Shown here one piece after another: positions 3,690-6,919 of a DNA stretch of 6,919 nt (its first letter is position 1; every line of letters begins with the position of its first letter). The notes under the pieces were generated by a model, which had not been told where the DNA came from, made no database searches, and saw only the letters and a program-made list of their open reading frames with translations. The stretch comes from a virus. Lineage: Duplodnaviria; Heunggongvirae; Uroviricota; Caudoviricetes. The translations under genes and the position numbers were made by a program. The stretch covers positions 1-6,919 of IMG/VR virus record IMGVR_UViG_2737471841_000008; one strand, written 5' to 3'.

Positions 3690-3999
3690 AAGCTGTGTGA
3701 CGAAGTAACCACTCTTAACAGCATAACCAATTTTTTACGTACGTAAACCACTAAATGATATTTGCGAGAATGCTACCGAGTATTGAAAACACCACTACAA
3801 ATACATAAGCAAATCTCAACAAATAACCAACAAATTATTTCCAGTGTTATTTTTAGCTTATTTAAATTGAACCTTCAAATTATAGAGCGCTTATAAATAA
3901 CAGTCGTTAATATAAATTGGCTAATAGATTTATTTTTATTCAGCAAAGAGCTATGAATAGGATTCGATAGAAAAAAGTTCAGATAAAAATAGAGATCTA

Positions 4000-4116
4000 C
4001 TTCACAAATCAAACGAGAAACCAAAACTTACATCTTGAAATAATCACATTGATTAGATGAATATTTATCGCGCAGTGACATCATTTTTTAATAATAGTTC
4101 AAAAAAAGGGCTCACG
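4000..4116 (+). promoter_or_regulatory. Porin gene promoter / 5' leader region, containing an OmpR-box-like sequence CTTACATCTTGAAATAATCA (4027-4046)
   Basis: AT-rich region immediately upstream of the porin start. 4027-4046 resembles, from memory, the ompC C1 OmpR site TTTACATTTTGAAACATCTA (about 14 of 20 positions, the left half nearly perfect). Exact -35/-10 elements not resolved. Confidence 0.3.
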
Positions 4117-5214
4117 ATGAAAAAATTAACAGTGGCAATTTCTGCTGTAGCTGCATCAGTACTGATGGCGATGTCTGCTCAGGCAGCTGAAATTTATAAT
4201 AAAGACAGTAACAAGCTGGATCTGTACGGGAAAGTTAATGCTAAGCACTACTTCTCCTCTAATGATGCAGATGATGGTGATACTACTTATGCCCGTCTTG
4301 GCTTCAAAGGTGAAACCCAAATCAACGATCAACTGACTGGTTTCGGTCAGTGGGAATATGAATTCAAAGGCAACCGCGCTGAATCTCAAGGTTCCTCCAA
4401 AGACAAAACCCGTCTTGCATTTGCAGGCCTGAAATTCGGTGACTACGGCTCAATCGATTACGGCCGTAACTACGGTGTAGCATACGACATCGGTGCGTGG
4501 ACTGACGTTCTGCCAGAATTCGGTGGCGATACCTGGACCCAAACAGATGTGTTCATGACTGGTCGCACCACTGGTGTTGCAACCTATCGTAACAACGACT
4601 TCTTTGGTCTGGTTGATGGTCTGAACTTTGCTGCTCAGTACCAAGGCAAAAACGATCGTAGCGATTTCGATAACTACACTGAAGGTAACGGTGATGGCTT
4701 CGGTTTCTCTGCTACCTATGAATACGAAGGATTCGGTATCGGTGCAACTTATGCGAAATCTGATCGTACCGACACTCAAGTTAATGCAGGGAAAGTTCTT
4801 CCTGAAGTATTTGCTTCCGGTAAAAATGCAGAAGTTTGGGCCGCAGGTCTGAAATATGACGCTAACAACATTTACCTGGCCACTACCTATTCTGAAACCC
4901 AGAATATGACTGTATTTGCTGATCACTTCGTTGCTAATAAAGCCCAAAACTTCGAAGCTGTTGCACAATATCAGTTCGATTTCGGTCTGCGTCCGTCCGT
5001 TGCTTACCTGCAATCTAAAGGTAAGGATCTTGGAGTATGGGGCGATCAGGACTTAGTCAAATATGTTGATGTAGGTGCAACCTATTACTTCAACAAAAAT
5101 ATGTCTACTTTCGTTGATTACAAAATCAACCTGCTTGACAAAAATGACTTCACTAAAGCACTCGGTGTAAGCACTGATGACATCGTTGCTGTAGGTCTGG
5201 TTTACCAGTTCTAA
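4117..5214 (+). CDS. nmpC: Outer-membrane general porin, phage-encoded NmpC/Lc type (OmpC/OmpF/PhoE family), intact, 365 aa
   Basis: ATG at 4117 with RBS AGGG at 4107-4110; stop TAA at 5212-5214. Signal peptide [23 protein letters not shown], mature N-terminus [16 protein letters not shown], porin hallmarks throughout and the C-terminal VGLVYQF ending in Phe. The track start at 4057 (MNIYRAV...) is rejected because the signal peptide begins at 4117. Confidence 0.92.
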
Positions 5215-5230
5215 TCTGATTACGAAAAAG

Positions 5231-5264
5231 ATATGTTGCGGGAGGCGTTGCCTCCCCAACATAT
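5231..5264 (-). terminator. Strong intrinsic terminator on the minus strand just past the 3' end of the porin gene (alternative candidate tR' for Q-dependent late transcription)
   Basis: atatgttg-c-gggaggc / gttg / cctccc-caacatat forms an imperfect ~14-bp GC-rich stem with one bulged C. On the minus strand it is followed by CTTTTTCGTA (RC of 5221-5230); on the plus strand there is no T-tract after it. Confidence 0.45.
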
Positions 5265-5403: not shown

Positions 5404-5787
5404 TTAATTAGAGTTATTAACAACGATATCCATCTCTAACCGGATATCTAATGCCATTAACATCCCTTCAATTATGCCCTCAGCCTTCTGTAACCTTTTC
5501 CCGATATAACCATCAGAGCAGCAATGCTTACCTGCCAGTGACATGAATGTCATACCGACTACATAATAATCTACTAATAAATCGTGCAAATCGCTGTTGT
5601 TCTTTTTCAGACGGGCCATGCACCCGCAAATGATCATCGCGTCATCGTCACAACATTGCGGGCGAGATTTTACTTTTGAAGGAATTAATCCCTTAAAACC
5701 GGCGGCAATGGACGACCAGGTCACATCTTCATGATTATTAGCCGCCCACGCTCCCCAACGTTCAAGAACCATCTGAATATCACGCAT
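5404..5787 (-). CDS. quuD: Late-gene antiterminator Q (Phage_antitermQ family; DLP12 QuuD-like, 127 aa)
   Basis: [34 protein letters not shown]...[16 protein letters not shown]...[12 protein letters not shown]... with a Cys-rich putative Zn-binding cluster. ATG at 5787-5785 with GGAG 7 nt upstream. The track start at 5802 is a TTG and is rejected. Confidence 0.85.
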
Positions 5788-6117
5788 TAACTTTCTCCAC
5801 AAAATCAGGCCAGCACACCAATCGCCAGTGCGCGATCGATAAAACGAAATATCAGCTCAAGCTGGGAGCCATACTTCTCTTCAAATGCCACGGTAACCAG
5901 GTCCACCTCGCCTGATGTGGCTAAAAGCAGGCACATAACAGCTAAGTATTTTCAACCAGAGAGAATCCTTAGCGTTGTGGTGAATGCGGCTCAGCGCACG
6001 CGGGTTAAGGTTGAGGCTGACAGTCGACCTTCTGTGGATACCCACCCGCCTGGTGTGCAACCTTCGCCAGGCACCGGGAGGCACCCGGCACCACAACTTT
6101 ATGCTGTGTGTAGTCCT

Positions 6118-6164
6118 GGCGGTACCAGCTTGTACCCTTGCTTCCGGCTGGTACCGTCCTTTTT
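6118..6164 (+). terminator. Terminator-like hairpin on the plus strand inside the non-coding region upstream of the integrase-like ORF
   Basis: cggtaccagc (6120-6129) pairs perfectly with gctggtaccg (6147-6156), enclosing a 17-nt loop, and is followed by TCCTTTTT (6157-6164). No T-tract follows it on the minus strand. Confidence 0.35.
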
Positions 6165-6253
6165 ACAAAACAGAGAAGAGCATCACCGGACGACGGGCTC
6201 ATAACCCAATCCATCCGGGCGGCAGTCACCGCAGGTGTTCTTCTCTGTTTTGT
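6165..6253. repeat. Perfect 15-bp inverted repeat (acaaaacagagaaga / tcttctctgttttgt) separated by 59 nt, directly upstream of the integrase-like ORF
   Basis: Arms at 6165-6179 and 6239-6253 are exact reverse complements. An extra cacc/ggtg pairing (6184-6187 / 6234-6237) extends the stem and the intervening sequence contains further ccgg/ccgg pairing. Confidence 0.6.
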
Positions 6254-6301
6254 GGAGAAACTAACCGACCTTGCAGGGTCGATATGATGAGGAGCAGCAA
6301 A

Positions 6302-6919
6302 ATGGCTAGCGAACGCAGTACTGATGTGCAGGCATTTATCGGGGAGCTGGACGGCGGCGTATTTGAAACCAAAATCGGCGCAGTTCTCAGTGAAGTCGCT
6401 TCCGGTGTGATGAACACGAAAACCAAAGGTAAGGTCTCGCTCAACCTGGAAATCGAACCGTTTGATGAGAACCGAGTGAAAATCAAACACAAACTCTCAT
6501 ATGTTCGCCCGACTACCGCCTGTAAAGTGTTGCGTGATCAAATAGGCAAGCATCACAAATGGGTGTTTGTACATACCAAGGCGGCTAAGCGAGCAGATGG
6601 AACATCAACGCCTGCGGTCAGGAAGATGCGCATCGACAGCAAGACATCATGGCTATCAGCTTGTCGTCGTGCAGGAATTGAAGATTTCCGTTTCCATGAC
6701 CTCAGACACACCTGGGCAAGCTGGCTGATCCAGTCAGGCGTCCCATTATCTGTGCTTCAGGAAATGGGCGGATGGGAGTCCATAGAAATGGTTCGTAGGT
6801 ATGCTCACCTTGCGCCTAATCATTTGACAGAGCATGCAAGGAAAATAGACGACATTTTTGGTGATAATGTCCCAAATATGTCCCACTGTGGAATTATGGA
6901 GGATATAAAGAAGGCGTAA
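6302..6919 (+). CDS. Integrase-like ORF (205 aa): unrecognised ~85-aa N-terminal part fused in frame to a tyrosine-recombinase C-terminal catalytic tail; probable integrase remnant
   Basis: ATG at 6302 with AGGAG at 6290-6294; stop TAA at 6917-6919. The C-terminal half ...[60 protein letters not shown] carries box II H-x-x-R (HDLRHT), the conserved Trp, and the catalytic Tyr in RYAHL. No box I TGxRxxE motif is present in the N-terminal part. The same frame stays open back to an ATG at 5984, but that stretch translates to Arg/Cys/Trp-rich sequence that does not look protein-like. Confidence 0.6.

Follow-up and report, generated by a model that had tools for sequence, protein, structure and literature searches.

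Positions 5,788-6,301 of a 6,919-nt stretch of viral DNA (IMG/VR record IMGVR_UViG_2737471841_000008, Caudoviricetes; the whole stretch is called the window below) lie between a gene for a Q antiterminator and an open reading frame (ORF) on the opposite strand, and were described in an initial annotation as one GC-rich, structured, non-coding segment. We propose that this segment was left behind from the early-left (PL) leader of a lambdoid phage of the SfV/ST64B type and carries a small RNA (sRNA)-plus-leader module, and we give this reading a probability of roughly 0.55. The host element would be a cryptic prophage similar to DLP12, in which deletions removed cI and PL along with everything else of the early region. 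The segment is not one unit: it is made of the tail of a DUF968 gene, a deletion joint and a leader block. Judged from its sequence and predicted fold, the core of the leader block is a divergent member of the STnc100/EcOnc27/PasD family with five helices and a pseudoknot. The RNA family itself is known; its early-left subfamily, the pseudoknot and the mimic of the initiator transfer RNA (tRNA) in the leader appear to be undescribed.

Composition of the segment and its place in intact phages

The pieces of the segment were defined by megablast against complete E. coli genomes and phage records. The closest complete prophages were DLP12-like elements at argU, for example that of E. coli E10 (L002). 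Window 5700-5899 corresponded to L002 6001-6200 and window 5894-6400 to L002 6791-7298; at the joint between them, 591 bp of L002, with one gene included, are missing from the window. A second joint was found at 6510-6519, where window 6250-6519 corresponded to L002 7148-7418 and window 6510-6919 to L002 10756-11164. Here a 3.3-kb deletion relative to L002, at a 10-nt repeat, joined yfdP in frame to the last ~400 nt (136 C-terminal codons) of intD. Because of these two deletions, the prophage is, on alignment, a twice-deleted derivative of an element that already lacked immunity. The recombination scar suggested in the initial annotation is therefore present, as the first of these joints. The downstream ORF had been called integrase-like, and residues 59-173 of the fusion do match Pfam Phage_integrase, but the ORF is really the N-terminus of yfdP fused to the C-terminus of intD. 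The annotation of yfdP begins at the ATG equivalent to 6302 in the E. coli prophages L001 and L002 and in K-12.

Upstream of the first joint, the minus strand encodes the end of a DUF968 protein: the remnant matched positions 145-171 of the 171 in the profile, PGAP annotated it in L002 as 'DUF968, incomplete', and a DUF968 gene normally precedes Q. The claim that the whole segment is non-coding thus holds for 5894-6301 but not for 5805-5893. A degraded early phage gene, which had been named as an outcome that would refute the annotation, is rejected as the origin of the leader block.

The remainder, 5894-6301, is a 408-bp block that was 97-100% identical to the unannotated gap upstream of orf32/yfdP in Kati, SfIV, SfV and SfII. 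In intact relatives the order is cro and cI (divergent), a terminator, PL, one or two small ORFs or a moron, the block, and the first early-left gene, which is yfdP, kil or an RdgC-like gene. This synteny was common to SfV, SfIV, ST64B, phiES15, sal3, mEp460, Flotzy and one E. coli prophage, and was also seen in prophages of Buttiauxella, Pantoea, Mixta, Lelliottia and Pseudescherichia. PL was located through operator repeats that recur in the cI-cro region: the SfV promoter reads TTGACA-16-CATAAT (L003 3371-3398) and overlaps operators of the TGTACC type, and that of L001 lies at ~5058-5090, between TTGCAT...CGCAA operators. Since PL was mapped well upstream in both, the block lies 600-900 nt inside the PL transcript. 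K-12 CPS-53 was of no use as a reference locus, as the block is absent there save the last ~30 nt ahead of yfdP.

The window retains none of PL, cI and the operators. The initial annotation had placed the segment at the site of the early region and considered pR and the N/cI circuitry absent. The loss of PL, cI and the remainder agrees with our alignments, and the position was correct, but the segment is a surviving piece, the early-left leader, and not a foreign insert. The compositional contrast that had been noted is real but modest: G+C reached its maximum of 0.565-0.585 at 5901-6200, against 0.34-0.43 over the Q gene. The segment had also been expected to hold the promoter that now drives Q. 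No sigma-70-like promoter was found on either strand in 5600-6500; therefore, the segment is not shown to drive Q. Because PL is gone and no promoter was detected, the copy in the window is probably silent or weakly expressed.

The pseudoknotted core, linker and terminator

The search of RNA families proposed with the initial annotation gave a full-length match of Rfam RF02076 (STnc100) at 5944-6167 (42.4 bits, E = 8.4e-7). The closing helix, P2, P4, P5, GGUGAAU and CACCGGGAGGCACCCGGCACCA of the family were all present (Table 1), the minimum-free-energy (MFE) fold of the window yielded the same helices as parsing by the family, and the terminator at the 3' end, with its stem at 6118-6158 and U5, fell inside the Rfam alignment. 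An sRNA-type module with its own terminator, one of the options offered for the segment, is thus present. Folding of both strands supported the plus strand: 5894-6170 gave z = -3.5, with none of 200 shuffled sequences as stable, while the minus strand of 5944-6167 was near its shuffles (z = -1.3). With the terminator and the hairpin downstream included (6110-6310), the fold reached -89.2 kcal/mol against -60.3 +/- 4.2 for the shuffles (z = -6.8, 0 of 200 equal).

To read the architecture of the family, viral contigs were scanned for the 22-mer CACCGGGAGGCACCCGGCACCA, which gave more than 120 loci, and 30 non-redundant cores were compared. Helices were parsed from anchors in Python, as MAFFT alignments of the variable centre were too poor for a covariance model. 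The homologous cores were 105-141 nt long. P1 is GUUGUGGUG/CACCACAAC in the window and UGCAUGGUG/CACCAUGCA in canonical copies, and is followed by an AAU junction, P2, a short P3 (GCG/CGC), a variable insert, P4 and P5. The P2 stem of the window is GCGGC/GC-CGC, and a distinct P2 sequence (GAAUGCGGC...) marks its subfamily; other members of the family have CCCCU/AGGGG or CCUUUC/GAAAGG. Covariation across 27-30 relatives was abundant, and RNAalifold found compensatory changes in 7 of the 20 pairs of the core; the lack of covariation that would have refuted the initial annotation was therefore not seen.

The pseudoknot is formed by the strand 3' of P2/P3 with the loop of P4. At least 5 bp could form in 27 of the 30 relatives, with ~14 distinct sequence pairs and a mean length of 7.3 bp, compared with 5.1 bp in shuffled loops (Fisher-combined p = 8e-12, from sequences that are not independent). 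The window has AAGGUUG/CAACCUU where phiES15 has AAGGCUG/CAGCCUU; CCAGUC/GACUGG, CUGGUG/CACCGG and AGACUGACAA/UUGUCAGUCU occur elsewhere in the family. This pseudoknot is absent from the structure line shown for the Rfam STnc100 model. Flotzy, which was found by BLAST and lacks the 22-mer, kept all helices, with P5 as GGUGG-AGGCA-CCACC and P1 changed to match. The invariance of P5 is therefore no artefact of the pattern search.

The core is preceded by the hairpin P0, which in relatives is a helix of ~20 bp. In 18 copies of the early-left type, an upstream strand of the CACAAC type has as its partner both the 3' strand of P0 and GUUGUG of P1, so that P0 and the outer part of P1 can compete. 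The stem sequences vary (CUAAG/CUUAG, GAAGCGCAUUUC/GGAAUGCGCUUC, GAGAGCG/CGCUCUC, AAAGGGCAUU/AAUGCCCU), and the P0 region had z <= -2.8 against shuffles in 12 of these 18 copies.

Between P1 and the terminator lies a single-stranded linker that was conserved across phages of E. coli, Salmonella and Cronobacter; the form UGCUGUGUG(U/A)AGUC was kept in SfV, ST64B, phiES15 and Flotzy despite their differing terminators. From this conservation, the linker UGCUGUGUGUAGUC is a candidate seed region.

The terminator hairpin had been noted as a perfect 10-bp stem with a T-tract. The inverted repeat at 6120-6129/6147-6156 was confirmed as perfect and far from chance, it grows to 13 bp at 6118-6130/6146-6158, and TTTTT follows at 6160-6164. 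A simple terminator scanner did not list it because its loop of 15-17 nt exceeds the limit of the scanner. The stems found at this place ahead of CCUUUUU are of at least five unrelated sequences: GGCGGUACCAGC... in SfV and the window, GUCGGCGUC...GACGCCGAC in ST64B, GCCCGCUUUCGGGC in phiES15, GUGCCCA...UGGGCAC in Flotzy, and GGCGGCAUC... or GGCGGCGCC... in L197 and L159. Such replacement of the stem argues strongly for selection of termination, or at least of a stable 3' hairpin with a U-tail. Over the family, a terminator was found within 160 nt of P1 in 102 of 119 copies, at a median of ~52 nt.

Canonical members of the family lie in the late region. We found 34 loci that precede a nanS-p esterase gene, and others between a Q gene (of several Q families) and a holin or lysozyme gene; the annotations of Klebsiella phage ST846-OXA48phi9.1 and Fels-1 show the element in this place too. 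Upstream of P1, 17 copies have a promoter close to consensus (typically TTGACA-17/18-TAAATT), with 3-6 nt between its end and the helix. Transcription would thus begin with the outermost pairs of P1, where a PR' leader would lie. STnc100 beside stx2B overlaps EcOnc27/sRNA103, an Hfq-bound sRNA (PMC12711010); Tree et al. described convergent sRNAs 3' of PR' (PMC4104026); and PasD is an abundant, northern-validated sRNA from Hfq RIL-seq with structural homology to STnc100 (bioRxiv 10.64898/2026.05.13.724894). Expression as discrete Hfq-bound sRNAs has been reported in these three sources for canonical members only. Tandem arrays of STnc100, with two to four copies and a terminator after each copy, adjoin phage tRNA clusters (L018 2265-3380; L026 342-1038; L015, L028, L032; L012 8044-8560), and isrI matches lie directly upstream of some copies.

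The core of the window shares with STnc100/EcOnc27/sRNA103 of enterohaemorrhagic E. coli and with PasD1/PasD2 of enteropathogenic E. coli a closing helix of the GUGGUG/CACCAC type, the AAU junction, the P2 loop UnnGC, P4, the P5 hairpin, the linker and the intrinsic terminator. It differs from canonical STnc100 in P2 and the central sequence, in the extra 5' hairpin P0 and in having no promoter abutting P1. It differs also in location: the window type belongs to the early-left operon, where it follows cI and precedes the first early-left gene, and does not lie 3' of Q/PR' in the late moron region (Q/PR' or stx2B to lysis).

Several observations weigh against an sRNA-plus-leader module. The score of 42.4 bits is below the RF02076 gathering score of 47, as are those of SfV (39.5) and ST64B (35.1), whereas canonical copies scored 54-147 bits. 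No promoter was found before P1 in the scan of the window, and the best candidates before P1 in the early-left subfamily matched 6 of 12 positions. When a target of the linker was sought inside the SfV genome, only the element itself and one match at chance level were found. Some members in Buttiauxella, Lelliottia and Pseudescherichia have no terminator and their core runs into the next gene, so that there the core is in the leader of a messenger RNA (mRNA), which favours a role in cis. Finally, sRNAs that act by base pairing seldom have so elaborate a fold with invariant loops.

Downstream leader and initiator-tRNA copy

The initial annotation had described a perfect 15-bp inverted repeat at 6165-6253. 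Its arms, 6165-6189 and 6229-6253, are 25 nt each and 84% complementary, with the outer 15 bp perfect, and the repeat was far from chance: the fold of 6160-6310 gave z = -6.6 against shuffles. We found that the hairpin is a three-way junction whose long stem has 19-25 bp and can extend to 6160-6258, where the U-tract pairs with GGAGA. In 15 diverse copies RNAalifold gave 33 pairs, 8 of them with compensatory changes; one pair, for example, is split between G-C (8 copies) and C-G (6), and a second between A-U (10) and G-C (5). G-U pairs occur at several positions, one being U-G in 14 of the 15 copies, which fits a plus-strand RNA rather than a DNA cruciform. The copies are 98, 99, 100, 101, 102, 106, 117, 121, 122 and 125 nt long, and since these lengths are not spaced by multiples of three, a conserved reading frame is excluded.

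Downstream of the junction, relatives keep GGAGAAACUAAC and a small hairpin with a loop of the UGCAG type (UUGCAG, GUGGCAG, GUGCAG), and the stems of this hairpin differ (GGCGG/CCGCC, GCGGC/GCCGC, UGGCAG/CUGCCA). The structured leader that had been suggested for the segment, 5' of the next ORF, is thus present. The module of terminator, junction, GGAGAAACUAAC, small hairpin and ribosome-binding site (RBS) was also found in phages without the STnc100 core (mEp460, Stx2c phages, cdtI), ahead of different first genes, and is therefore a separate, exchangeable unit.

Near-continuous double-stranded RNA of ~20 bp or more, which we took as the mark of an RNase III site, was found in the junction stem and in P0 of relatives. 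The junction stem is thus a plausible RNase III substrate on its modelled structure, and in read-through RNA P0 and the junction stem would bracket the sRNA module. The 5' strands of P0 (5932-5940) and of the junction stem (6165-6176) are CA-rich, with CACAACA in many relatives, and their partner strands are GU-rich (GUUGUGU). CACAACA is the GcvB target consensus quoted for the anti-sRNA AgvB (PMC4104026), and a sponge function of these strands is conceivable.

A 13-mer, TTTTGTGGAGAAA, occurs twice in the window, at 6248-6260 (+), in the 3' end of the three-way junction, and at 5792-5804 (-), in the ribosome-binding region of quuD. In relatives from Pantoea and Buttiauxella, GUGUGGAGA is found again behind the core and ahead of start codons, and therefore looks like a shared RBS-type motif; no start codon follows, at 6254, the copy that ends the junction.

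The tip of arm A of the junction carries the sequence CGGGCUCAUAACCC, in which three G-C pairs enclose the 7-nt loop CUCAUAA. It repeats 14 consecutive nucleotides of the anticodon arm of tRNA-fMet; the copy lacks the two lowest pairs of the tRNA stem, and no other part of the tRNA is present. When the search left the loop free, 115 of 132 copies had CUCAUAA and 130 had CUCAU; the ST64B copy, which BLAST had found, reads CUCAUUA. A tRNA gene or an attP relic was rejected, as ARAGORN found no tRNA or transfer-messenger RNA gene in the window and only the anticodon arm aligned. Mimics of tRNA anticodon arms exist in mRNA leaders, as in the thrS operator, and VapC toxins of Shigella and Salmonella cleave exactly the anticodon loop of the initiator tRNA. 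In the literature searched we found no description of a copy of the initiator-tRNA arm in a phage leader. The 14-nt identity may be a coincidence or stem from a tRNA fragment; alternatively, it may serve to pair with an AUGAG start region, or to imitate the initiator anticodon arm for a factor that reads it.

Table 1. Positions in the window of the elements and genes in and around the segment
Feature	Position	Strand	Basis or detail
quuD-type antiterminator Q gene	5404..5787	-	Pfam Phage_antitermQ, E = 9.8e-54; quuD in L002
C-terminal DUF968/HNH-type remnant, stop at 5805-5807	5805..5893	-	Pfam DUF968, E = 8.7e-7
Deletion joint TAACCA	5894..5899	.	Flanks overlap by 6 nt on L002
P0 hairpin, abutting P1	5941..5973	+	MFE fold
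P1 closing helix	5974-5982/6089-6097	+	Parsed in 30 relatives
P2 hairpin	5986-6001	+	Loop UnnGC
Pseudoknot	6007-6013 with P4 loop 6058-6064	+	Shuffle p = 8e-12
P4 hairpin	6048-6055/6065-6072	+	Parsed in 30 relatives
P5 hairpin	6074-6088	+	CCGGG-AGGCA-CCCGG
Single-stranded linker UUUAUGCUGUGUGUAGUCCU	6098..6117	+	Kept across phages
Intrinsic terminator (13-bp stem, 15-nt loop, U5)	6118..6164	+	Inverted repeat, MFE fold
Three-way-junction hairpin	6165..6253	+	z = -6.6; arm A 6185-6218, arm B 6219-6232
Initiator-tRNA anticodon-arm copy CGGGCUCAUAACCC	6194..6207	+	14/14 identical to K-12 metY
GGAGAAACUAAC motif and small hairpin 6266-6281 (CGACC-UUGCAG-GGUCG)	6254..6281	+	Kept in relatives
Shine-Dalgarno GAGGAG and ATG (6302) of the yfdP'-'intD fusion ORF (6302-6919)	6289..6304	+	yfdP annotated from this ATG

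Proposed function and its alternatives

In an intact phage, transcription from PL would pass a small first gene and enter the STnc100-type module. Termination at 6164, or processing of the read-through RNA at P0 and the three-way junction, presumably by RNase III, would set the ends of a stable RNA of ~190-230 nt. This RNA would depend on Hfq and act in trans through the linker, like its Hfq-bound relatives. Polymerase resistant to the terminator would enter the structured leader of three-way junction, GGAGAAACUAAC and small hairpin, which would set the translation or the stability of the first delayed-early gene.

The best surviving alternative is that the core is a cis-acting element of long phage operons, affecting elongation, termination, stability or processing, and that the sRNA is a by-product. 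We regard this as possible, at perhaps one chance in a few, because of the positions of the family at operon starts, the terminator-less members that run straight into the next gene, and the elaborate fold. Family copies begin operons under antitermination control, with the promoter of the 17 copies placed just before P1, the element between Q and holin in annotated phages, and the window type in the PL operon; the fold is pseudoknotted with invariant junctions and loops, and P0 and P1 compete for one strand. Such a role would resemble put in logic only, without membership. However, a terminator follows nearly every copy and is kept with different sequences, and relatives are discrete Hfq-bound sRNAs; therefore, the core RNA alone does not suppress the next terminator. 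The tandem arrays beside phage tRNA genes resemble genes for stable RNAs, only one STnc100-type copy is present per SfV and ST64B genome, with none after PR, the Rfam model found nothing in the regulatory regions of lambda and HK022, and a separate put-like leader sits directly after PL in SfV and L001.

Known elements at comparable positions were considered. Like putL/putR of HK022, the core is a structured RNA near the start of an early operon in lambdoid phages without an annotated N gene. Unlike it, put is a pair of stem-loops of ~70 nt, with no closing helix or pseudoknot, directly after PL, whereas the core lies far downstream of PL and is followed by a functional-looking terminator. Membership in put was rejected, as the STnc100 model had no match in the HK022 regulatory region and the put sequences share no motif of the core; the single copy per genome likewise led us to reject a putR-style second copy after PR. 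Promoter-proximal family members resemble the 6S RNA of lambda between PR' and tR', and StxS, in having a constitutive-looking promoter, a short structured RNA and a terminator before the lysis genes. The copy in the window, unlike these, is not at PR', and a relation to lambda 6S was not supported, since the STnc100 model had no match in the regulatory or late region of lambda. A lambda-type nut site (boxA of the CGCTCTTA type, boxB and N) was also rejected: no boxA was seen by eye in 5894-6301 and no N-like protein was identified. A boxA-like TGCTCTTT was present in the versions from Pantoea and Buttiauxella alone, where it belongs to the 3' strand of P0.

Other RNA elements were observed in the intact relatives. 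A leader of ~70 nt (CAGGCAGGACGCCCACGAAGUAGCCGCCUGGGGCAUAUGAAGUCCAGGAUGAUUCG), absent from the window, lies directly after PL in SfV (L003 3399-3470) and L001 (~5170-5240). Its alignment with putL and putR of HK022 centres on an invariant GUyCArGGAUGA and makes it a possible put-like RNA antiterminator of phages without an annotated N gene. In L001, at ~5275, a perfect rrn-type boxA (GCTCTTTAACAA) follows a hairpin between PL and the first small ORF. The isrK and C4 antisense RNA with its a1/b1 target was found in SfV (L008 27590-27791) and ST64B (L009 29991-30192), upstream of an antirepressor-like gene in the PR operon. SfV and ST64B therefore combine a P1-type RNA immunity module with an STnc100-type RNA.

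A less probable alternative, which we consider unlikely, is that the junction displays a deliberate mimic of the initiator arm (GGG-CUCAUAA-CCC) that engages a reader of this arm, and that the core is a protein- or ribosome-binding RNA, not a conventional base-pairing sRNA. The pseudoknotted core was observed at PR' and at PL as well as in the tandem arrays next to phage tRNA genes. The partner could be the P site of the 30S subunit or initiation factor 3, methionyl-tRNA synthetase, or, in cis, the AUGAG start region of the downstream gene. Another candidate is an initiator-tRNA-cleaving toxin such as VapC; an early phage transcript would then serve as its decoy or sensor.

Attenuation had been offered for the segment from the start. 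The core would then be a sensor that chooses between the terminator at 6118-6164 and an antiterminator, as in a riboswitch. An aptamer-like pseudoknotted domain with an intrinsic terminator 20-60 nt later, and the competition of P0 and P1 for the strand GUUGUGGUG, agree with this idea, but we consider it highly improbable. The terminator stems are wholly unrelated among relatives and the core, its 3' half included, is invariant, which rules out antiterminator pairing with the core, and no conserved, mutually exclusive pairing is possible. In addition, P1 and the T-tract are separated by anything from 30 to more than 120 nt, a terminator is missing from some members, and the MFE fold of the window accommodates P0, P1 and the terminator together. 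A translational attenuator of four segments (P0, P1 and the downstream GUGGAG) was considered and left as an unproven idea, as its c:d pairing has 5-6 bp; it is weakened by GUGGAGA being also the RBS motif of other genes in the same phages, quuD included.

Least credible of all is a degraded or unrecognised coding sequence, either an extended YfdP (ORF 5984-6919) or the antisense ORF 6005-6490. The frame is open over 5984-6301 and in frame with yfdP, PGAP placed a 'frameshifted hypothetical protein' there in L001 and L002, and the antisense ORF of 161 aa, which crosses the hairpins and the start of yfdP, matched phrog_3651 over its full length (E = 2.5e-107). Neither plus-strand ORF, however, had a Pfam or PHROG match, the antisense ORF is split between two frames in SfV (97% identical) and absent in phiES15, where the downstream gene is kil, the indels of the core and of the junction ignore the reading frame, and the substitutions in helices are compensatory. 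A degraded early gene was rejected on these grounds. Probably, phrog_3651 is a spurious protein family on an RNA-coding region, and the plus-strand 'frameshifted hypothetical protein' of PGAP is spurious too.

Outside the segment, the minus strand at 44-242 gave a full-length match of Rfam IS009 (222.7 bits, E = 2e-55), inside an apparent tail-fibre-assembly region, and weaker IS009 matches were found at the equivalent place in SfV and ST64B. The region 3700-4100 is very AT-rich (G+C 0.26-0.30) and precedes an ORF of 385 aa at 4057-5214 (+), on the strand opposite to Q and the lysis genes. The gene of L002 in the equivalent place, flanked by quuD and essD, carries a porin annotation, like nmpC.

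We conclude that, at this locus, the odd GC-rich spacer would be a leader stranded by deletion, with a known type of prophage RNA, and as such an ordinary relic. The STnc100/PasD family is wider than the Rfam threshold captures, and includes a distinct early-left subfamily across prophages of Escherichia, Shigella, Salmonella, Cronobacter, Pantoea, Buttiauxella, Lelliottia and Mixta. The covarying pseudoknot, together with the start of many copies exactly at a site like that of a late promoter, bears on how virulence-associated sRNAs, the stx2-adjacent one included, are made and on what they bind. The exact copy of the initiator-tRNA anticodon arm in a widely conserved phage leader is a testable lead, which may point to translational control or to an anti-toxin decoy.

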